64,000 nt of DNA from positions 32,001-96,000 of the IMG/VR virus record IMGVR_UViG_3300032249_000861; one strand, written 5' to 3'. Below are positions 6,561-43,958 of this stretch, piece by piece; position 1 is the first letter of the stretch, and the number at the start of each line of letters is the position of its first letter. The translations under genes and the position numbers were made by a program. Below the pieces are notes generated by a model. The model had not been told where the DNA came from, searched no databases, and saw only the letters and a list, made by a program, of their open reading frames with translations. This stretch comes from a virus.

Positions 6561-6583
6561 TTCATAAATATAGGAGATTTTAA

Positions 6584-7675: not shown

Positions 7676-7747
7676 GATTGGTTTACTATAGAAAAGTAGA
7701 TTGTTGATTTATCAAAGAGACTAAAGGACCAATAAAAGGACACAGGA

Positions 7748-7921
7748 ATGGAAGAGCTATATAATATAGTCGGTCGGTTATATGTCGATATACTTCATGC
7801 TCAGAAGTATGTTGAAAGCATACAAAATCAATTAAAAGACAAAGACACAGAGATCATATTACTAAAATCAAAATTAGTAGGTTTACCAAAAGATAAGGAC
7901 AAAAATGCTGAATCGGTATGA
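7748..7921 (+). CDS. small coiled-coil hypothetical protein (57 aa, not in ORF track)
   Basis: MEELYNIVGRLYVDILHAQKYVESIQNQLKDKDTEIILLKSKLVGLPKDKDKNAESV*; AGGA motifs upstream; ATGA overlap with the 7918 gene. Confidence 0.65.
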   Translation: MEELYNIVGRLYVDILHAQKYVESIQNQLKDKDTEIILLKSKLVGLPKDKDKNAESV

Positions 7922-8928
7922 GTCAGGAACTAGAACAATTTATATATCGTATTATAAGTGCTAAATTATTATTTACCTATAATAACAAAACATATGTTCT
8001 TGTTTCTACTAAACCGATAACTAAATATAGAGCTAATTTATTATATATTTCTATCTTAAATGATGAAAAATATGATGAGTGGATAAGGGCTGAAAATTTG
8101 GACAGATACATGATGTTTCTAGAAGTTTGGAATAGTGATATGTCTAGTTTTATGGAAAAATCAGAGAAACAGATAGAAGACTTAAAAATATCACTTTATA
8201 ATAACAGACTGAATAGTAAGATGACAACGAAAACAAGAAATCAACTAGCACATTTAAGAAAAAGAATATCTGATCTTCAACTTATAAAACAAACATATTA
8301 TGCTCAAACCTTGGAAGGATATGCAGAGAGTATAAAATACGAATATATTATTACGAATACATTATTTCATAATAAAAAAAGAGTGTTTAAAAAATTTGGA
8401 TCAGTACAAACATCATATCAAGAATTTACATCAGTAGTGTCAGAGATAAATAAATATGCACTACAAACATCGGATTACAGAAGAATTGCAAGATCAGATT
8501 TATGGAGATCTTTTTGGACTATAGATAAGACTAACATCTTCCCTGGACCAGTTTCATTATGGACAGAAGAACAACGAACATTGGCAGGATATAGTTCCAT
8601 GTATGATAGTGTATACGAACATCCCGAAAAACCTAATGATTCTGTAATTGATGATGATGATATGCTTGATGGTTGGATGATTAGTCAACGTAGAGCAATA
8701 GAAAAGAGTAAACAACAAGAGTCTATACTCAAGAGCAATTCCAAGCTTGGTAAAGCACAAGAAGTATTTATCTTTACCGATAATGAGCAAGGAATTAAAG
8801 AGGTTATGAGTATGAACTCCGATGAAGCTAACCTAGCCATTGCACAACGATCTAATATACTAAATAATACGCAATCAATAGATCATGCTCGCTTGCCAGA
8901 CGTTCAAAAAGATTTACTAAATAAATAG
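7918..8928 (+). CDS. putative tail assembly chaperone (long form)
   Basis: Lies between tubes and TMP; N-terminal two-thirds align by eye with the 9223 protein; extra C-terminal YDSVYEHPEKP..VIDDDDMLDGW segment. Confidence 0.5.
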   Translation: MSQELEQFIYRIISAKLLFTYNNKTYVLVSTKPITKYRANLLYISILNDEKYDEWIRAENLDRYMMFLEVWNSDMSSFMEKSEKQIEDLKISLYNNRLNSKMTTKTRNQLAHLRKRISDLQLIKQTYYAQTLEGYAESIKYEYIITNTLFHNKKRVFKKFGSVQTSYQEFTSVVSEINKYALQTSDYRRIARSDLWRSFWTIDKTNIFPGPVSLWTEEQRTLAGYSSMYDSVYEHPEKPNDSVIDDDDMLDGWMISQRRAIEKSKQQESILKSNSKLGKAQEVFIFTDNEQGIKEVMSMNSDEANLAIAQRSNILNNTQSIDHARLPDVQKDLLNK

Positions 8929-8938
8929 GATACAATAT

Positions 8939-9226
8939 ATGTCAAATTATCAACAACTACTCTACGACGTAGAAACAAAATTTAAAACAACAATGATTGG
9001 CTCATTGGCCAGATTTGAAGAAACATTTGGTCACTTATGGGAAGAAGAAGGGCCTGATCAACAGGAATATTTAGAATCTTGGGAATATACTCGAAATGCT
9101 ATTCTAAACAATGGAAACAAGCAAATGAGAGCAGCTTTGGATGATTTATCAGATGCTTTATTGGGGTCATATAAAACAAAATATACTTATAAGTTCAACA
9201 ACAGGAATAATGGAGATAAACAATGA
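8939..9226 (+). CDS. hypothetical helical protein
   Basis: 95-aa ORF with AGGA SD; ATGA overlap with the next gene. Confidence 0.7.
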   Translation: MSNYQQLLYDVETKFKTTMIGSLARFEETFGHLWEEEGPDQQEYLESWEYTRNAILNNGNKQMRAALDDLSDALLGSYKTKYTYKFNNRNNGDKQ

Positions 9227-10131
9227 AGACAAAGACTTTCAAAGCTACTATTGACGGTAAGGAAAGAGAATTTTTAGTTAAGACACCTTCTTTGACCGAT
9301 CAAAGAGAAGGACAAAAGGTTTATAACCAAGCTTTTACAGACGCTATTAAGAGCAAGAGTGTTGTTAGGGCTAAATTGGATGATCTATTAGAAGATCAAG
9401 GACTATGGAATGATGAGAAACAGGCTAAGTTCACAGCACTACAAAGAGAACTATTAGACGGCGAGAAAAAGCTAGCTAAGGGCGGGTTTAGTTTAAACGA
9501 AGCCAAAGACCTTGCTATTAAAATGAAGGGCGTGAGAGACGAAATCAGAGATCTAATCAGTGTTAGAACTTCTTTGGACAATCATAGTGCTGAAGGTCAA
9601 GCTGATAATGCTAGATTTAATTATCTTGTATCAGTATGTGTGGTGTATAGTGATAACAAAGAGCCATATTTTAGGAATATGGAAGATTATTTAAATCGAG
9701 CTACTGAAGAAGTTTCTTTATTGGGTGCTCAGAATTTGGCTAATATGATTTACGGATTGGATAATGACTATGAGACTAATTTGCCTGAAAATAAGTTTTT
9801 GAAAAAGTATAGGTTTGTTGATGACAAACTAAGACTAATTGACAAAAAGGGTAGATTAGTAGATGGTGATGGTAGACTAATTGATAGCAGTGGCAGATTT
9901 ATTGATGAAGAAGGCAATTTTGTTGATAAATATGGCAATAAGGTTACTTCAGACGGAGATTATATTGTTGAGCCACAACCGTTTTTGGACGACAATGGAA
10001 ATCCAGTTGTTCTAGAGGAAGAGAAAAAAGATGCACCAGCAAACACTGAGACACCACCAACACCTCTCCCAGTACAACCAGCAGCACCAGCACCAGAGGC
10101 TCAACCGCCAACTCCTCCAACTAATAGTTAG
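9223..10131 (+). CDS. putative tail assembly chaperone with DxxG beta-hairpin repeats and Pro-rich tail
   Basis: Last gene before the TMP; GGAG SD; 7-aa D-x-x-G-(R/N)-(L/F)-(I/V) repeats at about 9820-9960. Confidence 0.55.
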   Translation: MKTKTFKATIDGKEREFLVKTPSLTDQREGQKVYNQAFTDAIKSKSVVRAKLDDLLEDQGLWNDEKQAKFTALQRELLDGEKKLAKGGFSLNEAKDLAIKMKGVRDEIRDLISVRTSLDNHSAEGQADNARFNYLVSVCVVYSDNKEPYFRNMEDYLNRATEEVSLLGAQNLANMIYGLDNDYETNLPENKFLKKYRFVDDKLRLIDKKGRLVDGDGRLIDSSGRFIDEEGNFVDKYGNKVTSDGDYIVEPQPFLDDNGNPVVLEEEKKDAPANTETPPTPLPVQPAAPAPEAQPPTPPTNS

Positions 10132-10156
10132 TGTTTTTTGTTTTATCTTGATTCCT

Positions 10157-10203
10157 AAAAGTATTCCCTGCTCAGACATTGTTTTGGGCCGGGAATATTT
10201 TTT
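10157..10203. terminator. Rho-independent, possibly bidirectional terminator
   Basis: aaaagtattccc...gggaatatttttt inverted repeat with an inner gctcag/ttgggc stem; A-run before and T-run after. Confidence 0.75.
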
Positions 10204-10242
10204 ATTATTACCAATATCCATCTAACTTAATAATATAATTTT

Positions 10243-13200
10243 ATGGCTACAGCTTTTAATTTGACAGCACAACTTAATTTACGCGGTCCAAATAATGTTA
10301 ACAAGATTGTTGCAGACATTAAAAAGCAACTAACTGGTATAACTGCTAATGTTAATTTAAAACTAGACCCTAACGTTGCTAAAAATGTTAAAGCTATTGA
10401 TTATTCGCTAAAATCATTAAATGCTACATTATCTAAAACAACTACAAATGCTGGTTCCGCAGCAGCTGCTATAGCCGCTTTTGGTAAAGCTGTTAATGCT
10501 ATTAGTATAAAAAATGTATCGCCGCAAATTAATGCTGCTGTAGCCAGCATGAATAAGCTAAATAAGTCAAGCAGCAATGTTTCTCAGTCATTAACTGAAT
10601 CAGCAACAGAAATGCAAGAGTTTGGAAAACAAGCAGGATTAGCTATTAGACGTTTTGCGGCATTTAGTGCTGTTACTGGAGTTATCTATAGTTTAAGTAA
10701 TAGTATTACTCAAGGAATTCAAGCATATATAGATTATGATAAAGAACTAGTTCGTTTACAACAAGTTACAGGCGAGACCGCTGGAGGTCTACAATTACTA
10801 CAAGACTCAATTTCTCAACTAGCAACAGGTTTCGGCGTTAGCTCAAAAGAATTAACAACAGTATCAGTTACACTAGCACAGGCCGGTTTAAGTGCTAAAG
10901 ATACCGAAAGAGCCTTAAGAGCACTAGCATTAAGTTCATTGGCCCCATCGTTCGATGATATGAATGAAACTGTAGAAGGTTCTATTGCTTTGATGAGACA
11001 GTTTGGAATTAGTGCTGGACAACTAGAACCAGCTTTAGGTTCCATCAATGCTGTTGCTGCTGCGTTTGCTGTAGAAGCCGATGACTTAATTACTGCTATT
11101 CAACGTACCGGTGGTGTATTCGCCACTGCTAGTAAAGGCGTTAGTGAGGGAACAGATGCTCTTAATGAGTTCATTGCTGTATTTACTAGTGTTAGAGCAA
11201 CTACTCGTGAAAGCGCAGAAACTATTGCTACTGGTTTACGTACTATTTTTACACGTATTCAACGAGGAAGCACCATTGATGCTCTCAAAGAATTCGGCGT
11301 TACTTTAACAGACTCAGAAGGTAAATTTGTTGGAGCGTATAAAGCTGTTCAGTTATTAAGTGAAGGACTGTCTAAAATAGACACAAGAGATATTAAATTC
11401 TCTAGAATAGTAGAAGAGCTTGGTGGTTTTAGACAGATTGGTAAGGTTATTCCTCTTATTCAACAATTCTCTGTTGCACAAAATGCTCTTAAGATAGCTC
11501 AAACAGGACAATCTTCTTTGGCTAAAGACGCATCAACAGCGCAACTATCATTAGCAAATCAAATTCAAAAAGTTCGTGAAGAATTCTTCGCACTATTCCG
11601 TGAAATTGGACAAAGTAAAGGATTCCAGTCATTGCTTACTGGGGTATTAACATTAACAAGAGGTCTAATTAAGCTTGCTGATGTCTCTAAGAGCCTACTT
11701 CCTGCATTAAGTGTTGTACTAGCGTTTAAAGGAGCTAGTGCTTTAACTCAGTTTGCTAGTGGTTTCAGTAAAGGCTTTAGACCTGGCGGCGGCAAACCAG
11801 AAAAAGAAAGACCGCGATTTGCAGATGGTGGACAAGTTAGATACTATGCTAAGGGAGGACATGTTGCTGGTAGTGGAAATTCTGATACGATACCCGCCAT
11901 GCTAACTCCTGGCGAGTTTGTCATAAATAAAAAAGCCGCACGAGCTGTCGGCTCTAAGAATTTAAATAGGATTAATAGATATGCTTCTGGTGGTAAAGTT
12001 AAAGATTTAGTTAATGATCCTAATGGTAAAAAATCTCTTAAAAAGGTCTATGATATAAATAAAGATTTTGATAGTTATGAAGATCCTACAATAGATAGAG
12101 TAGACCTCGACAAAACATATGATCAGTATACACAACAATCTAAACAGATTTGGTTAGAGGCTAATAAAAAATACAAACAAGATTTAGCTCAAGGATACAA
12201 ACCCCAAAAAGGAGACGTCCCCCAATTAGCAAATGCATATATAAAAAGAGAAACTGGTGGACTAGCTCAGAATCTTGGATTCAAAGAACTAAGAGAGCCT
12301 CAGACGGCTAAAAAATTAAATAAAATTCGTGGAGCTTTAGCTGAAAATGAAGTTAAGAAAAGATATAAATTAGGAAATCCTCTCGCTTTACAAGATGGGG
12401 CTGATTTTTATGATGCTAAAAATGACAGATTCGTAGAAATCAAAAATCAGAAAAAACAATTAAAAGATTCTACTCTGATATCAAAAACATTGCTAGCATT
12501 TGCTGCGAGAAAAGGAAACAAGTTAAATAATCAACCAGATTATGTTCCTAGTTTAAAAATTCTTGCTGTTGAAGCTCCAAGCCCAGACAAATATGATGAA
12601 TTTGAAGAAAAAAAACTTGGCGGACCAATTAATAAAAGAGTTAAACAAGCTGTTGACTTCAAGAACCTGCACAAGATTAATGGGTATGCTAAAGGTGGGC
12701 CTATTGCAGCAAATATTACTGATACTACAACAAGCGATGGAGATACATTAAATGTAAATTTTACACCAGAACAAAAACCATTTAATACTTTGAGCAGATT
12801 AGAAAATTGGGATGCTTTTGAAACAGATGATGTTCAAGGTTTCAAAATACCCGAATGGCAAAGAAAATTGGGTAGAGCGGCAGCGAAGGTTACTTCTGAA
12901 GAATACAATAAACAAGATGACAAAGCTTTGAAAGCGTTTAGGTCGTCAAACGGAGCTATGGATAATTATGGTCGCCCAATGTTTAAAGATGATAATTTGG
13001 GGTCAAAATTAAAAAACTTAGGATTAGCTATGCCATATAAAGGTAAAGGCAAAGCTCCTACCAAACAGCTATCAACATGGGGAGACTATAGAAATATTTT
13101 TGGATATGCTCCTTCACAAGCACCAGGATTACAAGGAGAAGAGATATCAGAAGATAAGGCTGTAAAAAAAGCTTTGGGAGGAATGATTCAAAAGTTTGAA

Positions 13201-16200
13201 GAAGGTGGAGTAGCTCAAAGAAAAGTTGGATATATTGATTATGATGTTATAGCTAATGAAGCTAATAAAGATATTGTAGAAAAAGGAATGAAAGAAACAG
13301 GATCTGATGGTCCTAGAATCTATTCAGACTATCTTACCAAATTAGCTGTTAATGCTAGGAAATCTTCTAGTATTCAAAAACTAAGAGCAATCTATGGTGT
13401 TGCTGGTAGTGGTAAAACAACACTAGCTCGCGGTCAAGGAACAGATAATGCTAGACTAAGAAAGACAGAAAGATTTCCAATTCTTAGTCCAGAAGATATT
13501 CAAAAAGCTACTGAAATATTAATCCTAACTAGTAGTGTAAGTCAAACTAAAATGGATGATTTCTTTGGTGATGTTGATAGAGCATATACATTAAGTTCGA
13601 CTACTGATGCAGAAAGAAGCAGAGTAAGGGATCAAAGAGGATCAAGAGATGTTACGGGGATTGGTTTAGAGGGTCGTCAGCCAGGAACTACTATGGGCGT
13701 TTCAGCAGATACTGCTGTTGGAGAGGCTTTATTATCAGATAAACTAGGAGCTAAATCTACAGTATTAGGAAGAAGTGGCTCTGGTAGACTAAGAAGAAAG
13801 AGCGGAAATGAATTAGTAGACATTGTCAAGAAGAGAATTGGTTTTACATGGGGTGGATTTGCCCCAACAACAGCTGGTCATGAATCAATTATGGATGCTG
13901 CTGCTGCTATGGGTATTCCTCCAGAAGACTTTATAGCACTAGTTGGAGCTAACGAAGCCGTAGACGCATCATCTTATCGCACAGCAATATTTGATCAAGA
14001 TTCCAGAGTATTGCTAGCCAAGGCTGGTTTTGGAGCAAAAGGAGCTACTGTACTTCCCAAGCCAAGAGATTTTGAAGTTCCTCAAGGTTTTGATATAACT
14101 CAACAGGGTTCTGATAGAAGACAAGTACTAATTCCCAGCCAAGGTAGTACAGCATTTGTTGCAGATAAAACAGAAGACCAGACAGCAAAATATAGACAAG
14201 CTGGATATGATGTTAAGAACATAGAACGAACCGGTGGTATTAGTGGCACAATGGTTAGAGATTTAATTATAGCTGGAGATATGGCTAAACTTCAATCAGT
14301 ATTGTCTCCTGGCGTATATGATCTTGTCTCGAATAACATAGGAAGAATACAAAATAGAGCTAGTGTTTTACCATCTCTTATAGAACAAGCTCAAAAAGAA
14401 GCACAAGCTGAAATGGGTCAGGTGGATCAACAGATAGAAGCTCTTGGAATCAAGAGAATAGATTCTAAAAAGTTGGAGAGTGACCCAGAATATGCAGCTA
14501 AAGTAGAAGTTCTTAAAGAGTTAAGAGCTAAAAAACAAAAGATCAAATCAGCTGCGGGATTCACCCCATATAAATTATTAGATGCTTTAGCCGAAAAAGA
14601 TCCGCAAAATTATGCATTGGACTTCTCCACATCATCTAACCTGGGTAATGTTCCAGACATGAGGGTCATGGGACAAAACTCACAAGCTTCAATACCAGCT
14701 GGTAGAGTTGCTCAATTAGCTCAAGAAAAAAATAAAAGTATTCAAGACGTTATACTAGAACAGCTAGGCGGATTGGGTGGTCCTGCTGGAGTTAAAAAAA
14801 TACTTGGCATAGGTAGTGGAGATAGAACATTAAGCTCATTATTACAAGCAGGAAATATTAAGGGAGGTAAAGGTCTAGACGAAGCAGCAGACTATGTTAA
14901 CAGAGCTTTAGCCGCTAGGGGTATAAGAGATGCTGCAGAAGCCAAAAGATTAGAGGAGTATCAAGCTAAGGCTCTTCATTTTGGTATTGCTGGTTTATTG
15001 CCAATGGATTACTCAAAAGAATTCGAATGGGATATTGGCGGTACCGATGTTTACGCTACTGCCAGAGGTTTTGGTAGTACGTATTTGGAAGAAGCAAAAC
15101 AAATGCAGAAGGAGTCATCAGAACTAGCTCAAAGATTTGCAGAAAATGTGCAAAATAAAAATATCTTTGGTGGTGGTGAAAAATTGGCTTTTGATTTTGA
15201 CAAAACATTAGTTGAGGATGCAGATATTCTTGATGCTAAGGGCAAGCCAGATATTGCAAAATATTCAAATAGAGAGGCTGTACAAGAAGCTCTCAAAAGT
15301 GCAAGACCAACCAGACTAGCAACTAAATTAAAATCACTCATAGAGCAAGATCCCCCATTTATTAAGAAAACCAGAATACTAACAGCTAGGCCACAAAGCA
15401 CAGCAGACCTTCTTGCACAATCATTACAAAGCTTTGGTCTTCCCTATGCCGAAACAGATATTACTGGAGTTAGTGGTGGCGTTAGTAGCAATATTCCTGC
15501 ATTAAAAGCTGCTAATTTACAGAAAGAAGAGAAACTTATTGATGATAGTTTAGATAATATTATGGCTGTTCGTAAAGCTGGTAAAAAAGGATTTCAATAT
15601 ACTGAACCCAAATCCACAACATCAGAACTAGACGAAAAAATGGGTCAGGGTAATATCGAGGGTGCTATAATAGAAAAAGCTTTGGCTGTTTTGGGTGCTC
15701 CAGTAAGGCCGGATGCTAAACAAAATAGAGCCATAGACTATCCAGACGGTTTAGGTAGTGCATCTCAATTCTTTCCTGGTATTGATCCTGGTATTCCAAC
15801 AGAAGTTAAAAGAACAATTGACGGTAGTAGTTTAGAGAAAGTTAGAGAAGAGATTGGAAGATACATAACAGGAGGAGCCCAAGCTGTTAAATTAGCTAGA
15901 GGTGGAGCCGTTCAAAGCTTTATGGCCGGTGGAGCAGCAACCAAAACCAGAAAAACAAAAGAGCCTTTCGGAACTGGTGAAACAGAATTTCCAACAAGAA
16001 TATCAAAAAAATATGCCGAAGAACAAAAAACTGCTGATGAATTTGCTAAATCTAAATTAGCATGGGATAAGTATCCTAAAGACGAAAGAATAATGGTTGA
16101 CGATACAAAAGTGCAAGAAGCTTATCAGCAACCATTCGATAGAGAAAGATTTGCTTCATCATTCAAAGAAAAAATTAGTCGCGACTCACTATTCCAAAGA

Positions 16201-19200
16201 ATGTCAGATTTTGCTAAGTTTGTAGGACTTCCAGAAGAAGACCTATCAGTAGCATTACCCCTACAATTAGATTTCGGCGCTAGCAAAAGAGGCGGTGGTC
16301 TAGGCATGTTCGCTGCTGCTCAATTTGAAAAAGGAGCAACCGGAATTAGGCCATATGAAGGCTATGATTTATCTAAATTTGGATATGGAGAAAAACAAAA
16401 ACAAGAAGCTTATGGATTAGAGAAGCTTATAACAGCAAAAGAAAAAGAAATAGCAAAGATTAGAAAAACACCAACTGAAACTTATGATGATGGTAGTTTC
16501 TCTTTTGATAGTGAAGCATTCCAGAAAACCAGTATTGAGTTAGATAGCCTTAAAAATAGATTATTTAAACTAAAAGATTTAAAACGTGACGCAGAAAAAG
16601 CGGCACTGTCTGAGCAAAATACTACTTCATCAGCTGCCGGTCGAGGAACTATCAGCTTTGCTTCTTCTATGGGTTACTCTAGCGATACCAAGAACAGCAC
16701 CCTATACCACGAAATGACTCATCAGCTATTTCAAGGACTAAGAACAAAATCAGCAGGGAGTTTTGATAAATATCGAGATAGAGTATCGTCATTATTTTCT
16801 GGAGATAATGATGATTTAGCAGACGCTTTTGACTCCTTAACGGCTGGGGGCGGATATTCTAGTGCTGATGTTGTATATGGTAGAAGCTATAAGTCAAATA
16901 ACTTAAGTCAAATACTTTCGAGCTATTATCGTCAGAATCTTGATTTTTCTAGAAGTGCTGCTACTATTCCCCAAGATACGACAAAAAATCTTGCTAGTTT
17001 AAGTACCCAAAGCACAGCCGCCAAAAGAGCCAGAGAGTATAGACCAATAAATCCTAGAGTTAACGAAGCTTTACTTCAAGCTGGCGATAAGTTTGGAATG
17101 ACTCAAGAGAAGATTGATAGAATGGAAGATAATGGTAAAGAAGAGTTCTTAACAACCTTAATGGAAAAAGCCCCTCAGCTTGATCAAAATTTACAAGGAA
17201 TTTTAGACTCTACTTTAACAGAACTATTGAGTGGAGCTGGAATTCAGAGACAAAAATATGCAGCAGGAAGAAAAGTAGATTACGAATCTGGTGTTGGAGT
17301 ATCACCATTCGGAGGTTCGATATCAAAAAGATTAAGCGAGTCAGTTTATAATCTGCAAAAGGGTACCGGACTAAGTGATCCAGAATTCAATGAGATCAAA
17401 AAGACAGCAGATACATACGGATATAATGAAGAAGAATTTAAAGAATATTTAGCAAAAAGAATACAAGAGAAAAAGAATAAACAGGGACTAAGAGCCAGTC
17501 CATCAGCCTTGGCACAGCAGTTGATGCAACAAAAAACAGTATCAACACCCAAACAGCTAGCATTAGCAGAAACACTAAAGGGTGAGCCAGATGCTGGTTA
17601 TAGACCCATACCAACAGCAGCCGAAAGAATAGCTTCAGATCGAATGGCTGTTCAGAATGCCACAAGAAGATTTGCTAGTGGAGGCACTGTCTCGGCTTTA
17701 GTTAGTAACGGCGAAGCTTATGTTCCGCCAAAAATAGCCAAGAGAATTGGTTATGGTAATCTTAATCGTATGAATCAAGCTGATCGTAACGGGATGAGCA
17801 AGTTCTCTAGCGGTGGTATTAGTGTGTTTAAAGGTCCTGGGACTGGCACTAGTGACAGTATTCCTGCTAATTTACCAGTTGGTAGTTTTATTATTAGAGA
17901 AAAGGCTACGAAGGCTTTAGGTCTTAATAAGGGAGGTGCTGTACCAGCACAAAGATTTGCTACTGGGGGTAGCGTAACAAGCATGATTATGGAATGGTTG
18001 TCATCAGACATGACTGCTGGGACTAAGCCTAAAATGCCTCAAAGACCTGATATTGTTAGTAGGGCTACTGTTACAGCTTCTTCTGATACAACAAAAGAGT
18101 TGGATAATCTAGTTAAATCTCTTAATGCTGTCGGGTTTAGTGCAAAAGAATCTGCAGACATATTGAATAGGGGCGGGCAGGTTAGTTATAAAACTATAGA
18201 AAAAGCTTTGGTTAAAGATATTGAGAGATTAAAAAAATCTACAGCAGGTATAGATCAAATTACTCAAGCAGAAACAACTTTAGCAAGAATTCGTAATCAG
18301 ACAAAAAAAGATGTTGGTAGTAAACAAAAAATGGAGGAAGCTTTCAGAGGATCAGGAAGATCATCCGGCTCTGTGCAGCAAGAAATTTATTCTACAGCCA
18401 TGTCTATGGGCGAACAGAATATAGAAGCAAAAGAAGCTGCGAGAAGAAAGAAAATACCACAAATAGAAAAAAGAGAAAGAAAAAAGCTTATAGAAAGTAA
18501 GCGAGAAGATTTTATTGAGAAAGAATATAAAAATCAAGTAGCTAAAGAACAAAAAACTAAAGGTAGAAAATTAACAAGTACAGAAAAAGATAAAGTTAGA
18601 TCTGATGCAGAGCTTAAGGGAAATACAAAAACTTTTAAATTAACTACAGAAGAAAAAACCAATGTTAAAGCAACAGCACAAGCCAAAACCACATTATCTG
18701 CTGAAGAAAGAACAAAAGAATACAATAAAGCAGCGTTAAGGGCGACAACCTCGGTTACAGGAGCAAGTAAATCAGAATTAGCAGCTAAAAACGTTAAAGG
18801 TTCTGATATCTTAAGATATGCTCAAGAGAGTATGAGAGATCGTAAAACCCTAGCCGAAATGGATAAACAGTTTGTGGCTATGGCAATGGATGAGTATAAA
18901 AATCGTGGCACTGTAAATGGTATAGTTGTTAAGAGTGCGGCTGAAGCTAAAAAAGCTGCTGAAGAGGAGATCTCAAAGAGAAGAGAAGCTATTAATGCGA
19001 GAGCTTCACAGAATGGAGAAAAAGGAGTCGGTGCTGCTGGGTTGAGAGACTATAGAAATAGTCCCATACTTAATCAGATAAAGGGATTTATAAAATCTCC
19101 TGGAAGAGTAATGGGTGGAGTGTCTGTTGCTGCTGGGCTAGCTGCTGGCTCTTCCGATATGATTGCTAAAAATATGTATGATATGAGTACAACAGAGGGC

Positions 19201-22200
19201 CAAGGGAAAGCTGCTAAAACTTCTGCAGCTATTCAGTCTTCTGGTACTATTCTTAGTACTGGATTAGCAGCAGCATCACAGATGGCAACCATACCAGTTA
19301 TTGGTCCTTATGTTGCTGCTCTTACTGCTGTGGGAACAGCTGCTGCAGCTGCTGCTGATTATTTTTATGATTTTACAGGAGCTCAAAAGGCTGCTACTGT
19401 AGAATTCGAAAGATCAGTAAGGGCCAAAGAAATTGGAATTGCTATGGATGGTTTAGATAGAGCATTCCAAAATTTTGAAAAAGACATGGGTAATATTGAT
19501 TTACAAAACGCTTTAGAAAAATCCCTCGGCGGCGCATCCTCTTTGCAAATTAAAGATAATATGGCAGAAAGAGACAATGCTAAAGCAGAGTTCTCTTTAA
19601 AGAATAGAAGTTGGTCGGATATTTTTAGTGGAAACTTCAAAGGTTCCGCCAAGATGGACGCTCTTCAGCAAGGTGCTATGGATAGTGAAATGTCTCAAAA
19701 GATAACACCAATAGCAGATAAGGCTATGTCGTTATATGAGAAACAAATTAGTAGCGGTAAGAGTATACAAGATATTGTTAATAATGTTCGTACAGGAAAT
19801 AAAGAGGCTGGAGCTGCTGGTTTTGCTGTTGCTGCAAGTGTAAATCCCAAGTTGTGGTCAGAGTTAGAAGCCAAGATAGCAAAATCAGGAGATACTTCAG
19901 AGCAGAATAGAGAAAAAATTCAAAAAGAAATAGCTGCTAGAGAATTACTGACCAATGTTCAATTACAGTCAATTGAAAGAATGGCTAAACTAAATAAAGA
20001 GATGGATGCTGCTGATAGAGCTGGTCGCAGATTGGCTGAAACTTTTGAACACATAGGTGAAACTATTGATCAGTCAATTCAGAGAATGCAAAGAGAGTCG
20101 CAAATTCGTCAAGCTCAAGCTAACGACAGAGTAGAAGCTAGAAGAGGAAATGCTGGTTTTGATGAGAGGGCTGTTAATAACAGAAATGTTGGAGTACTAA
20201 CCAGTCCAAAAGCATATCAAAATGATCCTGGGCGCATAGAAGAAGCTATCAGAGCAGGAACTACCGGCATGTCCCCGGAACTTGCTCAAAAAATGGCTGG
20301 TGGAGCTAGATTAGAAGCTACTTTACCTAATGTGATGAGAAATGCAGTATCTTCAGAGCTTAAAACAAATGCCAATTTAGATCTTGCTGAAGCAGCAGAT
20401 GCCGCCAGGAAAAAAGGAACAGAAGCTATTCAAAGGTCTGGATTATCAGAAGCTGACCAAAAAGTTGCTATAGATAAATTAAACACAAAATTAAATAGTG
20501 AACAAGAAAAAGCACAAAAAGAAGGAGGAGATAGTCCAAGACAGAAAGTTGACTTTTTTATTGATTCTGTTAGTGAGCTTGGTCCAGAAATAGCTAATAT
20601 ATTTGGTAATGCTGGTAAGAGACTAGATGATATTATTCAAGCCAGACAAGGAATCTATGATACTTTTGCAAAGAATCTTCAAGCCGCCTCAGAAGCTGCT
20701 AAAAAAGCACGAGAATTTTTCAGTAAAGCAAGAGACATAAGATATAATGCTGGAATGGATTTGAGAGAAGCTCAAACGGGCGTAGGAGAAAGTTATGCTG
20801 AAGCAAAAGCTAAATCTGATAGTAGTATTGCACGATTAACTGGCGGGGTTACCGATCCTCAAGCTATTGGTAGAAATATTGATGCTTTAACGGCTCGTCG
20901 TGATCAGCAAATGAAAGCTAGAGATGCCGCAGCATCTGATCCAAATCTAACTCCAAAACAACAAGAAGATGCGGCCATAAAATTTGCTAAAGATATTCAA
21001 GCTACTAATAATGCTTTAAACGATAATAGAGAAGCACTAGATAAGCTAGCTAATAGTGCTGAAGTAGCACAAAAAGCTTTAGACGAAGTTAAGAACATTA
21101 GAGGACTACAACAAGATAGAGAGAACTTTGTTAATCAATTACTAACAAATACTCCAGCAGAAGCAGACAAACTTAATCAATCATTTATTAGACTTCAGCG
21201 TAACTTGTCTGGTGGGTTAAATAATGCTTCTAATCAAAGAGATGCCCGAAATGCTTTTAATGATACGTTACGTCGTACAGGTAATCTAAGAGAAGCTACT
21301 CGCGCTGGAAATACTGTATTAGCAGATCAAAGAAAACAAACCCTACAGCTGATGCAAGATCCTGGATTTAGGGGTATGATGACCCTTAATATGAAAAATC
21401 AGGGAATGAATGATCAACAGATAGATAAGAAATTCAGAGATCAAGAGAGTATGCTGATGCAGCAGATGGCTGTTGAAAGTGGAATGATCAATAATCCAAT
21501 GGTCAGACAAGCACTAGCCGCAAAACAAGATCCTAATGCTGATCCTGCCATGAAACGTGCTGCTGAACAATTTTTACAGTCAACGGGCTTACAGGCAAAA
21601 GCTACTGAGGAGCAAGGTCGATTAGAATTAGCTAATGTGCAAAGCTTATTAATAACATCTACTGATGATTTAAGAACGTCTATAGATGCTTTAACAACAA
21701 GTATTAATGCTTCGTTAGGTCCAGACGGAGAAAGAGTTCCTGGCGCTGTTGGGCCTATGGTGCCTGTTCCAGCCGGGGCCAGAGGAGCAGGTCCTATTGG
21801 ACGTCCTATTAGACGAGCTACTGGTGGTAAAGTCAATACTCAATATGCTAGTACTGGTAAATTAATAGACTTTTCTCCCAAGGGTACCGACACTGTTCCC
21901 GCCATGTTAACCCCCGGTGAATTTGTTGTTAATGCCAAAGCAACGGCAGACAATTACCCACTGCTAAAAGCTATTAATAATGGAACTAATCTAGTTGGTA
22001 ATACGGCTATGATGAGTAAGGGTGGAGTTGTTTATTTAGATAATGGCGGATTAATAGATGAGTTTAGAAGAATAGATTCTAATAGTTCCAACTTTTTAGA
22101 AGTTGGTGAAATAGATCTTAAAATGATGCAATTATTAGATACAGATAAAGATAATAAAGTTTCATTTAGAGAATATTCTGCAAGAGCAAAGAGCGGTGGT

Positions 22201-25200
22201 AGTGGATCTTCAAGATCTGGTCAAAGATCACCAGTTAATAGTAGTTTTAAAGCCGACAATCTAAGCTTTAAAGCGTATTCTAATGCTAGAGAAGAAAAAT
22301 ACTCAAAAAGATACGAAGGCACCAGAGATCGATTCCCTAGAGAAACAGAGAAATTTTCTAGTGGGGGCTTAGTTACTCCATACTATTTACAGGACGGAAC
22401 AGAAAAACCACTATCTAAAAGACCCTTTATGGTAAAGATGGAGAAACCAGAAGACCCTCTTGAGGCTGCTGAACGCCGTCGTGCCCGTGCTCTTAAAGCG
22501 TCCCATCCAGAGATTACTAGAGTCAGACAACCATCTTTGGTTCCTGGGGATCCTAGAGCATTAAGACACAAAGAAAGCTTCTATAGACTAGATGTTAATA
22601 GTGATGGTGTTCTAGATGCAAAAGAAGGCAGACCACATCCTGAACTTGATAGAGATTTAGATCGAAGAATAACACTAGAAGAATGGGACGGAATCGATCC
22701 TGGTGAATTTGACCCAGATGATTCAAGCCATGTTCTGCGAGACAGTAAAGGCAATCCTTTAACTCCTGGACTTATGGGAAGCCCATTTGAAAAAAGGCAT
22801 CGTTCTTTAATGGCTTCTGTTGCTATGGATGAAGAAAAACTTGCTAAGGGTGAACCTTTAGTGGACTCTAATGGAAAACCCATAGACTTAGCAAGTAAAA
22901 GGAAAGAACTAGCCATATTTAATGCTCAGTCTGGTCTATATAATACTAGTCAATCACTTATAGCAAGACAAAAAAATATTGACGATAGTCTAACCAAACG
23001 ATTAACTGGTGGCGGTTCTCTTCGTAATCCTGATAGTTCTTATGCTGTTACGAGAGAATTTAATAAGATTCGTGATCGGAGATCTGCTTTTGAAGAAGAA
23101 AGAAGAGGTCAAAGAGCCAAAGATGAGAACGCAACAGATGAAGAGATATTTGATCGCACAGTAGAAGCCTATGGGCAGGGAGATTCAGATTATTGGCGTA
23201 GTATGGGCGTTACTGAAGCACCAAACTCTTATGATGAATCTAATACTCTGAATTTTATTCGCTCAGGTGATCGTCTTGCAAGCAGAGGAGATCCTTATGG
23301 AGACAAGGCCAGAGCATATATAGACGGATATATCGCATCACAAGGTGCTAGACAACAGCAGGACAGAGTAGATATTGGCATGGGAAGACCTACCATATCT
23401 CCGGACAAAGCTGTAGTAGGTACTCAAGGTCCAGTAGACGATCTTAATTATTTGATAGACCGAAATGAAGTAGGTAGAGCGGTAAAGTATAAAGCAGAAC
23501 AAGCAAAGACTGAGGAAGAGAATAAGCAGAGAGATGATGCTCAGGTAAAACAAGCAGAAAAACAAGCAAGCTTAGAAAAAAGAGATAAAGAACTAGGCAT
23601 AGACACTAGCGGCATTAATCGAGATATATATGAGAGTGGTGGGGGTTTTTCAAATCAGCCAGGAAGTGGCAGAAAAGTTACAGTAGAAGAACAAACACAA
23701 AGAAAAAGAGAAAGGGCTATAGCAGATAGATTTTCGTTCACAGATAAAACAGGAAAATACTCTACTGCTGGTACTATTGATAAGGTTGATTTTGAAAAAG
23801 GTACAGTTAAAATAGCTAAGATGGATCCGAAAACTGGGGAGCCTATTACCAGAACGGTTCCGGTTTTTGCTGGTGGTGAAACAGAAGAAGCGATTAAGGC
23901 TTCTGGTAGAGATCCCAGAAGATTCAAGGTTGGGGAGAAAGAAGAACAAGTATACACTACTGTACCACTAGATAAGCTTAGTGATAAATCTAGAGATAAA
24001 GTTAGATCTTATGGCTTAGAGAAAGAAGCAGACAAAGCTAAGACTGGTGAAAATTTTACAGTTGGCACTAGTTTTGAAGATTATAAAGGTAAAATATTTA
24101 GAGTAGATGAAAAATCTGAAAAAGTTATTGTTCAAAAGGAAGATGGCAAACTAGTTAGTGTTCCTATGGGAATAATAGATCCCGAAACAAAAAATATAGC
24201 ACTAGATCAAGCCAAGACAGCTACTACAGTTACTGATTTAACACAGAAACAGATGGATGCAGATATCGGTAATATTGATTTCACTTCATCATTACCAGAA
24301 CCTCAGGTTCCATTAATTGAGGACTTTACTGATAGAGCAAATGAAGTTCGTCAAGAGACTATGAACAATGCTGCTTTAGAACAGACAAAGATGGATCAGT
24401 TACCGGTGATGTCTGAACCAGTACCAACTTCAGGTACTATTGATCCTCTTACTGGCAAAGTTGTTGGGAATAATGTTTCTATGGACTTGAATCCAGACGG
24501 AACTCGCACTCCAGAACAATTAAACATATTAAACCAACAAGCTACCAGAGATGCAGACAGACGTAATTCTAACGCAAGATACGAGGAGCTTAGAGCTCGA
24601 TCAAAAGCAGAGTCTTCATATGACAGATCATGGTTTGGAGAAAACTGGCCCAAAGAATGGGGAGGAGTATCAAAGCCCGAAAAAAGATTAACAAGAAAAG
24701 AATTAGAAGAACTTGGGGCTATGGAAAGTGAAAGAGGTGTTCCTGCATTATCAAGATTAGGAGCCAACACAAGAGTAGAACAAACAAGGAGAAATGCTGG
24801 GTTAGACGAAGCACAAATTGAAAGTTTGAGTCAACAAAAAACAGAACAGTTTAAAGCTGAACTTGAGAAAAAAAATGACGCAGAAGGTGGGGTGGCTGTT
24901 GGACTAGCTGCTCAAAGAGCAGTAGTTCCATTATTAGCTGGTGCTACCGCTGTTGCTGCTGCGCCTGCTTTAGTTCCAGCAGGAGTAATTGGTGCTGGAC
25001 TTACCATTGCTGGCGGTGTTGGTTTTAGTTTGGGTGCTAATAAACTACAAGATGTGGCATTAGAAGGTACAGATTTTGACAAGAGGCAAAAAGAATTGGC
25101 AGAAAAAAGGCCAGGAGCAACTGCTGTTGGGTCTTTATTACCAGGATTATTAACGGGCAATCCACTGACTGGTGCAACTACTCTGCGACAAGCACTAGCA

Positions 25201-28200
25201 ACAAGAGCTGCTAGCGGAGCTACTGAAGCAGCACTAGGGGCGGGCATCAGAGGAGCAACTAGTGGTGGAGATTTCGGTACCGTACAAGATGTTGGAATGG
25301 ACTTTATCTCTGGAGCTATTCTTCCGTCTCCTAATTTTGGAGGTAAGGGATCAAAAAACTATAATATTCCAGAAGGTCCAGCAAAACCCAAAACAGAAGC
25401 AGTCGCTTTAAAAGAACTTGCTAAAACAGTTAAGGCTGAACAACGAGCAATCACAGAAGAAAATGTTCTTGATGGTGCTGAAATATTAGCAACAAAAAGA
25501 AAACAAGAAGAAGTTAGAAGAGCAGCACAAGAAAAACAAAGAGTCAGAGATGAAGCAGAAGCAGTGAAAGAATCAGGAAGAGAAAAGGCTGTTTTTGATG
25601 TTTTCACTATTGGAGGAAGATTAAGTGATGATAATATAGCCAGTGCCCTAAAGTCAGCCAAGGAAAAAACTGTAACAGGAACCAAGTTACTAACCGGCAA
25701 AGTTACCGGCAAGCCTAGGGGAGATTTAATAGAGCAGAATCCTACACTAGCTAGTAGACTAGGGGTGTCAACTCCAGGATTAGATGCTGTCAAGAATGGA
25801 CAAAATATAACAGCAAAAGATTTAGTTGCAAAACTAAAAGATGAAGGTTTTAGTGAAGAATATGCTAAGAAGGTCTCAAGAGAGCGTACTCTTAAGATGG
25901 TATCAGATCTTGCTACCGAACGATCAAAAAGAAAAGATGAATCAATACAACAAGTGGCTTCTGAATATAAAGACGCTGTAACTGGTGTTGAAGATCCTAA
26001 TAAGCGAGCCAAAATTAAGGCTAAATTTCAAACCAGACTGCAAAAAGAACTATCGTCTATAGTATCTGACACTAACGACAGAGCAGAAGCATTTGATTCT
26101 GGTATGACGGTTCAAGAACTTAAAAAACAAAGAGCAGCAGAAGCTCAAGCCAAAGATAAAGCAGAGTCTGATAAATTAATACAAGAGTTTGATTCTACTC
26201 TAGGATCAAGTAAGCCAATAACTATTGATAATCCGCCCATCGGAGAACCTCTCGATCTAGGAGTAGACCCACTCGCACCAATAACGTCTGCCAGGGATAA
26301 TGCCGCTACTACGGCAGCTAGTACAAAACCGATATCAACAGAAGAACAGTCTCCGGTTGGAGAAACCACAATTCCTCAGCCTAATAAAGATGCTGCTGAT
26401 ACCGTAACTGCCGGTACAAAACCAGTCGATGCTGCAACAGTAGCAGCAAAAAACCAGACAGTAGTCAAGGCAGCAGAACAAGAAAATACATCTTCGCTAC
26501 AAACATCAGCGATACCGCAGCCCAAACCCTATAATCCTACAGATTATCCTATTATGGATAGTATTATGAGAGGAGGAAAGAACGGCCATTATGGTCCGAT
26601 GGGTACTACTAATATAACAGGTAAACAAAATATTCATGGAATAAGCGGATGGAAAACTAGACTCATACCAAAAGACGACGCGTCTGCAGCAAAAATTAAA
26701 GAATTTTTAGATACTCATCCAGATATAGGGTCATATAAGTTAGCATTAAATGAGGGACCAGTACCAGTATTTAGTGTCTATTTCAAAAAAGGCACCAAAG
26801 ATGAAGCACTATCTTTTGCACAAGCTAGTGAAAAAGGACTAAAAGATAGTTTAGATCCTCGTTTATATCAGGGTGCTGATACTCTGCTAGAAGGGACAAA
26901 TATTTCCGCAAGATTTGATGCTAGAGATCTAAAGAATAAATCAGCATCATCAATTATAGATAGACAACTAGAGAATTCTCCTTTTAGTAGAGGATTTTTA
27001 AAAGCTGAAGAACTGAATCTACAAATACTTCCATCAAATACGGCACCTGGGTCAACGGCTAGCAGAGCAATGCCAAACATTACTGCTGGCACCAGAGGAG
27101 TACCAGATACCGGGTATGTTGATTGGTTAAAAACAAAAAAGTTTTTGGCGAAAGATCCTAAAAAGATAGCTAGTCTAGATGCAGAGATACAAAGAGCTAC
27201 TAACGTAGCAGATGATTGGCTAAAAGAAAATATGTCCGACATCTACAGCGCATCTGCTGAACGAACAGCTAGAGAATCAACAGGCCCACAACAACAAGCA
27301 GTAGTTGAAACAGCAACAAGAGACGCTACGAGCAGGCCAACCAAATCCGGTTTTGTTCGAGATAAATCATTACCGATAAACGAAGTAGACGATCTAGCTT
27401 CTGCCGGATTTGGAGTTATAAGCCCAGACCAAGAAGTAGAAAGTGTTATAAGGGGTGCAAGAGAAAATTTTCTTGGCTCTTTAACTAAACCAGCAGCATT
27501 ATTACAGCCAGAAACATACCAAAAATATGCAGACCAACTATTAGAACTAGAAAAATCAGGAAAAATAAAAATAACCAAAGGCGCTTCATTTGGTACTAGT
27601 GGCCAACCAAGTATATTTGTAGGAAAACCAGAAAATGTAGATATTCTTGCAAAAGCTTTTGAATCTGAAACAGCAAGGACACGAGAAACGAGAGGTTCAA
27701 CATCAAATGAATTTAAAGAAACGGTAGGAAAAGCATTAGGATATAGTAAAGATAGTATAGCCCTACATATATTAGAAAAAGATTGGGATAAAGCAGGATT
27801 AGATATAGACACTATTCAAGATAGATTACAAGTTAGTCGTGGTGCTGCTGCTCGGTATATGGTATCAGAAATTAATAAAGCTAAAGAACAAGCATCAGTT
27901 GAGCAAGGAGTAAAAGAATCAATAAACCCGCCCATCAAAGATCCTATTACTGGAGATGAATTTGAATTAGGACCTGGAGATGATTTTCAATTAGGAGGTC
28001 TTGGAGAAGATCCGTTGGCACCGGCTCCTATAATAAAACCAGAAAATGTATTACCTGAAGCAAGAGCAGAATCAGAAGCTCGTAGAGCCGAAACAGCAAC
28101 CTCACGAACTAAATCTAGTATTGTTGATGAAGATGAGTTTGTTTTAGGAGACATGGAAGATGATAGTACTGTCGTAGCTGTTGAGCCTGACGATGGTTCG

Positions 28201-31200
28201 AACTTTTTTGGAGAAGCATTCGCTGCCGCCGCACAAGAAGCCAGAGCCATAGAAGCAACAAGGGCTCAGATTGAAACCAACGATAAGTTTGTTGTTGACC
28301 AGCCTGATATGATGACAGCTTCAGAGCTTGACCCAATAACAAGAGCTTCTAGTAGGAGGGTTTGGGGATCTGATAAGGCTTTTGAAAATATGCCCAAACC
28401 CAAAATTTCTAGAGAAAAAGTCAAAGCACTAGACACTGGCGAGCCTGACGAGATGACAGCTTCAGAGCTTACTCCTCTACAGAGGGCCGTTATTAATAAG
28501 TCATTCGGACTTGATTCTGATAAAGGTTTCGAATTGCGAGAACAACTTATAGCTCAAAAAAGAGAAGCAGATATACTTCCAGAAGACTTTTTTCCAAACG
28601 GTTCATCAAGAACAGAAACTCCATTATCTTCAGCTAGAACAGAAGCAGAAGCTAAGAATCCTGGTACCGTATTTGAAGGACAGTTAGAAGCAGCATTAAC
28701 CGATGCTTCTTCTCCAGAAGCTTTAAAAGCTTCTGCAGAAGCTCAACAAAGATTAGCAGCACAAAAATTAGCAGCAAAATCTCCAGAACAAATATCTGTA
28801 GAAAAAACATATGGTCCTTTATATAGAGAAGCTAAAAAAGCTAATGATACAGCGGAGATGGCCAGAATACGATTAGAAGCTAATGCAGAATTTAAGAAAC
28901 GCTCTCAAGAAGCTTCTACAAGATCTGAAGATAAAAAGAACAATTTCCTTCCTGTTATGGGTAGGGTCTTAAAGATAGCCGCCCCAATCGGATCAGCTAT
29001 TGGTTATGGACTAGGATCGTTATTAAGTGGTTCTATGGGCAGAAAAAAAGAAGAACCTCAAGATTTAGCTTCTAGGTTAGAAAATGCTTCTGATCTACAA
29101 GAAGTTTTTGATCTTTTAAAACTAGCAGAAAAAGACAAGATAGGAAACCCGACTAATCCTTTAAGAGAAATAGGCGGATCATCCCCACTTATTGCTAAAT
29201 TACAAAAACTAGCTCCAGAAATATATGGTAAAAAAGGTAGTGACTATTTTAGCTCTCAAGACTTAGCAGCTATGCCGGAAGACGCATATAATGAGAATTT
29301 TCTAGAAAGATTAAAAGATAATGCAACATTCGAGAAGATGAAAAGAGAACAAAAGGTAGCTGAACCTGCTCGCTTAAAGAGTGATGAGGCTGCACGGGCT
29401 ACAACAAGAGATCTTATAACGCAATGGTCTCAAGACTTTGCTATGGCGGGTAATGATGTCCGAACTCCTCCAGGTTCTGATCCTAAAAAAGCTAGAAATC
29501 CGTTAAAAGCCATGTCACGAGAAATGGCAGAAAGAGCACAAGAAAGAAGAAGTGGATTCCCCACAGACGATCAAGGAAACGATCTACAGATAGGCACTAT
29601 GATTCCCGCCCCGATATCGGTTTTAGATCGTACAAAAAATGATGCTGCAGCGATGAGAGAAATTGACGAAAAAGATAATAATGCTGCTCCGATGCTGGAA
29701 GTTAAGAAACCAGTAAAGAAATCTCTTGGGGGTTTAATTTATGCGTCGAAAGGAACCTTAGTAAACTACCAACCTCGTGGAACTGACACAGTACCAGCAA
29801 TGTTAACTCCGGGCGAGTTTGTTGTTAATGCCAGAGCAACAGCAGATAACTACCCATTACTAAAAGCTATTAATAGCGGAACTAACGTTGATACTACTGC
29901 TAATATGAGTAAGGGCGGTGTGGTTTATGCTCAAGAAGGAGCATTAGTACCTAGCTTCGGAATGCATATTCCATCTTTAGATCCAGACAAAAATACTAAA
30001 TTAACCCTATTACCAGAAAGCTCTTTAGATCAAGCAAATACAAAAGAAGCTTTTCGAGAATATGGAAACGCTCGACCTTCCTATCAATCAAGACCACAAC
30101 TACCAAAGCCAACTGTTCAATCAGGATCTTTTAAAGAAGGAGTTCATGATAGAAATTCTGTTATAAAAGATAGTGAATATTCTAGAAGTTTAAAGAGAAT
30201 GGGTATTCCACACGTATCACAGAGTGGTGGATCTAAAACCTATTTGGATCAAAATGGCAGAGAAATTTCAGCAAATGAATTTAAACTTTTACCAGAAACG
30301 TCTTTTAATCATCCAGAATATGCAGTCATGCGTAGCAGAGCAGCTTTTGCTGCTGGAGCTGCTAAGTCTGTTGTTCCTCAAATGGGGGCTACGTCTGGGG
30401 CTATAGCAGGAGCAGCTGCCGGAGCCGTATTAGGACCTCCCGGAGTAATTGCCGGAGGCTTGATTGGAGGTTTGACTGGTGGTATAATGGGATCGGCATT
30501 ACAAGAAACAGCATTAGATATAGCAAATCCAGAGGCTAACGCTATAGCTAATCAACTAATGGATCAAAATCCCGTATCAGCAATGGCAGGATCAGCAGCA
30601 GGAGACATTGCAACAGGAGGATTACTATCATTAGCCTTGCCTTCTATACCAACACCAACAAGGGCTGGAGATTCAATGGTTGGTCCCGGAGGACTAACAC
30701 CAAAACAAATAAAACATGCTGAAAAAGGATTAAATAGACCCATATCAGAAGCGATTACTCCGTTTACAGGAATGAAAGGATTTGGAGGTCGTTATGTTGA
30801 CGGTCCAATAAGTGTTGATCAGTTAGTATATAAATCCAGAGACAACTTGGCTGAGAGTATTCATTACTCTGGGGCAGATCCCAAAACATTTGATTCATTA
30901 ACAACAAGATTAACAGAACCTGTTCCTGGAGCTCTTGGTGATTATTACCAGGGACTAAGCAGGATATCTCCTAAAGCTCCTCCAGAACATATTATTGGAA
31001 CAATAGCTCATGAGGCTGGCCATCATTATCAAACAATGAAGGACCCTACTGGAAGATTCGTAAAAACTTGGATGTCAGATAATAGAGATCAAGCAAGTGA
31101 CTGGATTTTAAAAAGAACATCCTCTCCTCAATATCTTGAAACTGCAACTCCAAGAAACCAGGTGAATTATGGAGTTAATGATATGCTGAGTGGGGATTTT

Positions 31201-43940: not shown

Positions 43941-43958
43941 ATAAATAAGGTATATATA

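Follow-up and report, generated by a model that had tools for sequence, protein, structure and literature searches.

Can a tailed phage carry a working nuclease inside its tape measure protein (TMP), in the very conduit through which its own DNA passes? The question is raised by a 64,000-nucleotide stretch of an uncultured phage (positions 32,001 to 96,000 of the IMG/VR record IMGVR_UViG_3300032249_000861; hereafter the window, whose coordinates are used unless another source is named), in which a giant TMP open reading frame (ORF; 10243..32967, plus strand, as are all parts of this ORF described below; 7,574 amino acids (aa), 819.6 kDa) was flagged by a first-pass annotation as enclosing an apparently active thermonuclease, a relative of staphylococcal nuclease (SNase). 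We confirm aa 820-940 of this protein (12700..13062) as a diverged SNase domain: the catalytic set is invariant, and both profile comparison and fold matching lead to the same family. The cassette is probably an active SNase-type nuclease, and the phage probably brings it ready-made into the host just ahead of its own DNA. The overall account that we favor, and that we judge somewhat more probable than its opposite, is of a catalytically competent, diverged SNase cargo cassette that is built into a giant TMP and delivered to cut host nucleic acid.

The motifs that had drawn attention to the locus are all in frame: DGDT at aa 832-835 (12736-12747), RLENWDAFE at aa 852-860 (12796-12822) and DNYGR at aa 907-911 (12961-12975), with the predicted catalytic codons those of D832 (12736-12738), D834 (12742-12744), R852 (12796-12798), D857 (12811-12813), E860 (12820-12822), D907 (12961-12963) and R911 (12973-12975). 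In an exhaustive HMMER search over 1.84 billion representatives, 21 proteins passed E<=1e-3 and 7 of these also passed E<=1e-10; their alignment shows D-G-D, R-L, D, E and R as invariant and a further D and G as nearly so. A profile made from the window segment and 12 shorter relatives matched staphylococcal nuclease chains among the PDB sequences with E=2.8e-9 over SNase residues 11-134. The resulting alignment pairs DGD with D19-G20-D21, the R..D..E residues with R35/D40/E43, D-K-Y-G-R with D83-K-Y85-G-R87 and GLA with G107-L-A109. Despite an overall identity of 35-45% within the family, D832, G833, D834, R852, D857, E860 and R911 (D19, G20, D21, R35, D40, E43 and R87 in SNase) are present in 21/21 members and D907 (D83) in 20/21, and position 909 (Y85 in SNase) is Y or F in 19/21. 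With the full catalytic set so strongly conserved, the description of the domain as apparently active is a fair one as far as sequence can tell.

A separate IMG/VR search with the N-terminal 990 aa of the TMP recovered 21 related loci on contigs of 22-244 kb; the same related-locus search with the SNase segment alone returned zero relatives. The SNase-like modules of two of these loci (L016 and L020) score 22.8 and 21.0 bits against the Pfam family PF00565 and so barely reach its cut-off of 21. The only codon comparison possible for an SNase cassette, between L005 and L007, counts 3 synonymous and 0 non-synonymous differences in 166 codons.

An AlphaFold2 (AF2) model built on the 21-sequence alignment has a predicted local distance difference test score (pLDDT) of 76.8 and a predicted template modeling score (pTM) of 0.75. 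All of the top 50 Foldseek matches in the PDB are SNase (E from 9e-4, probability ~1, target TM-score 0.45-0.50), and VIA-align, which is independent of Foldseek and was run over 48,161 chains, places SNase 1sta_A at rank 1 (Z 9.3, root mean square deviation (rmsd) 4.6 Å, 119 aligned residues, 20% identity), with Tudor-SN and extended-Tudor SN-like folds filling ranks 2-13. Against BFVD the model finds its closest counterparts in SNase-like nucleases that viruses encode as stand-alone proteins, among them those of giant viruses, Synechococcus phage S-RIM2 and uncultured Caudovirales. A model without the SNase OB-fold was one of the results that the first-pass annotation had named as counting against it; the fold, an OB-barrel with three helices, was found, SNase ranking first with two aligners. 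The model shortens strand beta5 and leaves the linkers that flank the domain at pLDDT <50. The variable tail of the cassette (aa 941-975, 13063..13167), which is missing from several relatives, is partly helical, with helices at residues 129-143 of the model and low pLDDT after its residue 160.

Compared with S. aureus nuclease A (thermonuclease or micrococcal nuclease; PF00565; PDB 1stn, 1sta, 3d6c), the window domain therefore shares profile homology, the overall fold, the absence of cysteine and the order and spacing of D19-G20-D21, R35, D40, E43, D83-x-Y85-G-R87 and G107-L-A109. It differs in being only ~20% identical and missed by the Pfam model, in a shorter beta4-beta5 region with beta4 drawn as a helix, and in a C-terminal helix region that is variable or missing in relatives. 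Moreover, nuclease A is a secreted free enzyme, whereas the window domain is an internal segment of a predicted 820-kDa virion protein.

These results bear directly on two readings in which there would be no enzyme at all. With the 170-180 aa segment as single query, Pfam (at E<=10), PHROGs, PDB sequences and the phage records searched by tblastn (50,697 of them) were all empty, and such silence would suit short motifs that have come together by chance in a giant protein of low complexity, without any SNase domain. We reject this reading as extremely improbable: it is effectively refuted by the profile match at E=2.8e-9, by the agreement of Foldseek and VIA-align and by the conservation of the family's motif columns, to which the Pfam matches in relatives can be added. 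The Tudor-SN ranks bring in a different reading, that the domain binds nucleic acid without catalysis, as the SN domains of Tudor-SN do, and ties the front end of the phage DNA to the TMP as a pilot; inactive SN-like folds are common, and the slot would adjoin the expected position of the DNA end. Inactive SN domains, however, have lost the catalytic residues, and precisely these are kept here: at 35-45% identity, 21/21 members retain E860 as general base, the two aspartates that bind Ca2+ and the two arginines that bind phosphate. The other module that can fill the same slot, described below, also bears a nuclease-type motif, and we regard a mere pilot as very improbable.

That the domain lies inside a TMP, as had been proposed, is well founded. 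The TMP core domain (PhageMin_Tail, aa 188-382, 10804..11388) is recognized by PF10145 with E=4.9e-22 and 79.2 bits against a cut-off of 33.2, and in tblastn aa 1-520 are 24-31% identical to annotated TMPs of cultured siphophages, namely those of Rhodococcus phage Reynauld and Bacillus phages Slash and Stahl, and YomI of SPbeta. The core is followed by a first 'DTxPAMLTPGEFV...NRYAxGG' module (aa ~525-584, 11815..11994), which closes the first TMP unit and matches many PHROG TMP families near the families' own C-termini (for example at profile positions 1345-1394 of 1465 and 1883-1938 of 2006); further copies of the PGEFV motif, found here at aa 556, occur at aa 3891, 6523 and 7328. Given the PF10145 core and a module that matches the C-termini of PHROG TMPs, the first ~590 aa look like a complete small TMP unit, behind which come ~7,000 aa of further modules. 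By its translation, its PF10145 and tblastn matches and its composition, the ORF is a genuine TMP, and the opposite strand holds no ORF of at least 80 aa over 12700-13040.

Within this chain the SNase domain is cleanly delimited. The bracketing by YAKGG (aa 815-819, 12685-12699) and KALGG (aa 976-980, 13168-13182) noted in the first-pass annotation is borne out by relatives, in which these xxGG linkers are conserved. On the 5' side lies a duplicated partial linker that ends in YAKGG (aa 793-819, 12619..12699), of which aa 795-819 repeat the pattern of aa 560-584, and N(K/R)YAxGG immediately precedes the SNase domain in relatives as well. On the 3' side lies the linker KKALGGMIQKFEEGG (aa 974-989, 13162..13209), an instance of the conserved pattern KKxLGGxIQKFxxGG; in relatives this pattern follows either an SNase or a PD-(D/E)xK-like (hereafter PD-like) cassette or, after SNase, is replaced by another xGG-PGEFV module. 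Among the representatives searched with HMMER, the SNase domain sits straight after the first PGEFV module, inside TMP-like proteins, in 20/20 relatives, those with low SNase coordinates being 5'-truncated gene calls. No free-standing homologue was found in the same 1.84 billion representatives, where the sole short match, P0010, is a TMP fragment.

The slot itself has more than one kind of occupant. In 9/21 of the related loci (L005-L011, L016 and L020) the first slot is SNase-like, in 8/21 (L001-L004, L014, L018, L019 and L021) it holds a module with an E..(P)xD..(D/E)xK motif, and in the other 4/21 its content is different again, so that SNase-like or PD-(D/E)xK-like modules together account for 17/21. 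The window holds both, the PD-like module (aa 585-792) preceding the SNase domain. The relative P0002 is without the PD-like module, and its identity to the window is 93% for aa 796-989 but 58% for the TMP core, a disparity which indicates that cassettes move between backbones; P0003, too, has a near-identical cassette. In L001, ~580 aa of other sequence stand in place of the window's SNase before 82% identity resumes. As judged from these aligned loci, the comparison shows the SNase domain to be a linker-bounded cargo cassette that occupies a fixed slot and is exchanged between TMP backbones.

The upstream cassette (aa 585-792, 11995..12618) points the same way. Its E..D..ExK motif aligns with the first-slot modules of 8 related phages, those of L014, L021, L002, L004 and L018 among them, and its identity to L001 reaches 97% at the aa level against ~68% for the core; codons differing from L001 number 20/210 in this module and 315/500 in the core, so that the two cassettes have almost the same DNA between diverged flanks. 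The linker 'VNKKAxxAVGxKNLxRINRYAxGG' occurs twice (11920-11994 and 12625-12699), once on either side of the cassette, a doubling that resembles the trace left when a cassette is inserted through recombination inside the linker. The cassette has no Pfam match and no homologues of 409-2,000 aa, and its AF2 model (pLDDT 42) is too poor for a fold search; that it is a nuclease is an unproven suggestion at the level of motifs.

If the cassette is cargo, it should obey whatever rules apply to the protein that carries it, and one such rule is visible in its composition. The 7,574-aa TMP contains no cysteine at all, SNase cargo included, whereas other proteins of the window contain 0-3.8%. The TMP ORFs of the 21 related loci (from base 6001 in L001-L021) likewise have 0 cysteines in 55,244 aa against 0.93% in the ORFs of their upstream neighbors, and YomI of SPbeta has 0 in 2,285 aa. 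This absence points to one constraint acting on scaffold and cargo alike, and a cargo that shares the cysteine avoidance of its scaffold would fit one that travels with the TMP through storage and ejection. The first-pass annotation had the nuclease unfolded or inactive until released, which gains indirect support from the lack of cysteine, from family members whose alignment lacks the C-terminal part of the SNase fold and from published TMP-fused or TMP-like cargo, which has been proposed to suit itself to the lumen of the tube and to fold once ejected (PMC13277306, PMC10770324).

The same observations weigh on the possibility that the domain works in the producing cell or during assembly, be it in late degradation of host DNA, in trimming of unpackaged DNA, or as a segment that proteolysis at the xxGG linkers clips out while the tail is still incomplete. 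The conserved bracketing linkers could serve as processing sites, and HExxH motifs at aa 2156 and aa 6923 of the chain could be zincin peptidases of the kind proposed for polyvalent proteins. A domain confined to the producer's cytoplasm, however, would need no strict TMP-like avoidance of cysteine, the place of the cassette inside TMPs is fixed with no free-standing homologue among the representatives searched, and in Thermus phage P23-45 the cargo remains on the full-size TMP in virions (PMC10770324). We consider action in the producing cell improbable.

In siphophage tails (lambda, T5, SPP1, 80alpha) the C-terminus of the TMP lies at the tail tip and leaves first, from which it follows that an N-proximal cassette would leave last, adjoining the DNA end. 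The delivery account that we favor would accordingly run as follows. The tail lumen would hold the cassette as part of the TMP, either extended or no more than partly folded; the TMP would exit C-terminus first, with the N-proximal nuclease last and immediately ahead of the DNA; and the cassette would fold after exit, probably aided by Ca2+ and substrate. Truncated SNase fragments are unfolded until Ca2+ and nucleotide bind, and such ligand-induced folding would make the SNase fold a plausible choice for cargo of this sort. The nuclease might then cut nucleic acid of the host where the phage enters, or just inside that point, and, being present before any phage gene is expressed, could contribute to host shut-off, nucleotide supply or attack on defense nucleic acid, with the incoming genome spared through timing or tethering, or because the cytoplasm has little free Ca2+.

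Two published systems provide precedents for parts of this scheme. TMP-like effectors of contractile injection systems have been proposed to adapt to the tube lumen and to fold after ejection (PMC13277306); these effectors (Sle1/Tme) resemble the window protein in joining a TMP-like coiled-coil carrier to a variable functional domain, but they belong to bacterial nanomachines, carry a single C-terminal domain and include no nuclease. Of the published cases, Thermus phage P23-45 comes closest: its gp96 is a 5,002-aa TMP whose N-terminal part is a virion RNA polymerase (Nat Commun 2024, PMC10770324), present in virions within the full-size TMP and responsible for transcribing pre-early genes. 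Like the window protein, gp96 is a giant TMP with an N-proximal enzyme of nucleic acids, and that enzyme acts on DNA in the newly infected cell; it differs in that a two-barrel RNA polymerase at the extreme N-terminus takes the place of a nuclease behind the PF10145 core, and in that a single cargo contrasts with the window's chain of linker-bounded cassettes.

A nuclease that precedes the genome through one channel nevertheless poses a paradox, as the first-pass annotation had pointed out, and the concern is a real one: SNIPE, a host nuclease stationed at the TMP conduit, cuts incoming phage DNA (PMC13190303), so a nuclease in the phage's own DNA path could plausibly do harm. One way out would be modified phage DNA, but none of five common DNA-modification families (Thymidylat_synt, TGT, DNA_methylase, N6_N4_Mtase and MethyltransfD12) occurs in the 110-kb record; as the record is only 73% complete, this counts as weak negative evidence. 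The remaining escapes would be timing, tethering, a cytoplasm poor in free Ca2+, and action outside the cytoplasm. A further target named at first pass was extracellular DNA; its clearance before adsorption is rejected as unlikely, for the TMP stays enclosed in the tail until triggering.

Action outside the cytoplasm, by contrast, deserves to be weighed in full. Here the TMP would span the envelope, and its Ca2+-dependent domain would degrade nucleic acid in the cell wall, the periplasm or a capsule or biofilm matrix, or would cut the DNA of later, competing phages at the entry channel as a form of superinfection exclusion. Classical SNase is secreted and Ca2+-dependent, the same TMP contains two sub-threshold EF-hand matches, a cysteine-free chain is typical of proteins that cross or work in oxidizing compartments, and SNIPE demonstrates that DNA can be cut at the TMP conduit during injection (PMC13190303). 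Yet the polarity of TMPs would make the N-proximal slot the last out and the one to travel furthest with the DNA, the N-terminal cargo of P23-45 works in the cytoplasm (PMC10770324), the nearest viral folds are stand-alone SNase-like nucleases that are presumably intracellular, and no periplasmic substrate is known. We hold this reading to be unlikely, although not negligible.

Several points also weigh against the cytoplasmic delivery of an active enzyme that we favor. Classical SNase needs Ca2+ at millimolar levels that the cytoplasm does not offer, which makes action there uncertain, and at least three copies of a chain of many globular modules would have to fit into the tail lumen. The cassette could be cleaved off before assembly, and the phage is uncultured and known from its sequence alone. 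As to the domain itself, PF00565 misses the window copy even at E<=10, whether the segment or the whole 110-kb record is searched; the fold match is moderate (TM-score 0.45-0.5, rmsd 4.6-8 Å), with strand beta4 of the OB-barrel modeled as a helix by AF2; and the window domain is near-neutral (isoelectric point about 6.5-7.8), whereas most members of the family are basic.

The recurrence of nuclease-like modules in one position invites a bolder proposal, which we put forward as speculation and think rather unlikely as it stands. The first slot may be a dedicated first-strike nuclease position, filled by an SNase or a PD-(D/E)xK-type enzyme, in a large clade of uncultured phages of 50-240 kb. 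The enzyme would be kept unfolded and cysteine-free, would exit last and would be switched on only at the entry site, where it might destroy host or defense nucleic acids or the DNA of competitor phages at a shared port, its own genome being spared by timing or Ca2+ gating. A nuclease in such a slot would mirror, on the side of the phage, the host nucleases that lie in wait at the TMP conduit, of which SNIPE is one (PMC13190303).

Among other enzyme-bearing phage proteins, the window TMP resembles two known designs. The TMP of mycobacteriophage TM4 has embedded peptidoglycan hydrolase motifs (PMC1796659), and both it and YomI of SPbeta, which is 30% identical to the window TMP core and also free of cysteine, have enzyme domains built into the TMP and used at entry; their domains attack peptidoglycan, whereas that of the window belongs to a nuclease family, would have a different substrate and possibly acts in another compartment. 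The polyvalent proteins of phages and conjugative elements, described in a paper in which neither TMPs nor SNase domains appear (Iyer et al. 2017, PMC5512222), likewise combine many unrelated enzyme modules in one giant chain with predicted delivery alongside DNA and a role in early host conflict, although in the window most modules are recognized at motif level; the HExxH motifs of the window TMP may correspond to the zincin-like peptidases predicted to release the modules of polyvalent proteins. Their difference from the window protein is that here the carrier is the TMP itself and the modules are bounded by a specific xxGG linker.

In the 7,574-aa chain the established domains are the TMP core and SNase, the other modules being motifs or sub-threshold matches. 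The cassette directly after SNase (13210-15600) contains a P-loop (GVAGSGKT), a nucleotidyltransferase-like pair (TxGH/ISGTxxR) and a HAD-like motif (DFDKT), with family support in the form of weak cytidyltransferase PHROG matches (E 0.03-0.04). SNase leaves 3'-phosphate and 5'-OH ends, on which kinase-phosphatase end-healing enzymes act, and the adjacency of the two cassettes may be meaningful or coincidental. The two HExxH motifs lie at 16708-16722 (aa 2156) and 31009-31023 (aa 6923), both without a family match in the Pfam search, and the regions around them could be zincin peptidases that cut the chain at its xxGG linkers. The two EF-hand-like stretches (aa ~3960-3979, ~22120-22180; aa ~4112-4128, ~22576-22626) are possible Ca2+ sites on the same chain as a Ca2+-type nuclease.

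Apart from the TMP, the genes of the source record (110,025 bp, an estimated 73% complete, ~35% G+C) are mostly unrecognizable. In the gene neighborhood of the TMP all genes are on one strand. Directly upstream of the TMP are two small overlapping ORFs (8939-9226 and 9223-10131) with no family match, and downstream lies an 827-aa ORF with an fn3 domain and weak matches to PHROG 'minor tail protein' families; in blastn against phages nothing matched the genes that neighbor the TMP. Several large tail-fiber-like proteins (32988-36518 in the window; 21579-29443 in genome G000, L023) combine Mtd_N with FGE-sulfatase (C-type-lectin-like) domains, an architecture typical of the targets of diversity-generating retroelements. 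Sugar-metabolism genes at 6554-12677 of G000 (L022) encode a GlmS-like amidotransferase with SIS domains, an NAD-dependent epimerase and a GDP-mannose 4,6-dehydratase, and a glycosyltransferase is found at 106910-108601 of G000. Two adjacent cysteine-rich ORFs of the window (41748-46274; 730 aa with 3.0% and 771 aa with 3.8% cysteine) stand in sharp contrast to the cysteine-free TMP.

That TMPs can carry cell-wall hydrolases is already known, and one TMP that has been studied carries a virion RNA polymerase. Our full-text literature search combining tape measure with thermonuclease, SNase, staphylococcal nuclease or micrococcal nuclease found nothing relevant; we thus found no paper that describes an apparently active non-specific nuclease in a TMP, which would be a variation on the theme of enzyme-carrying TMPs. 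Pfam does not see this family, and viromes therefore probably contain more cargo of this kind than their annotation shows. The exchange of linker-bounded cassettes, together with chains wholly free of cysteine, suggests general rules for the design of proteins that a phage tail can take up and eject, rules which are relevant to the engineering of tail-like injection systems. If the nuclease is active and delivered, a phage can supply the cell with an enzyme that cuts DNA or RNA ahead of all gene expression, which raises the sharp and testable question of how the genome that follows escapes a nuclease in the same channel.

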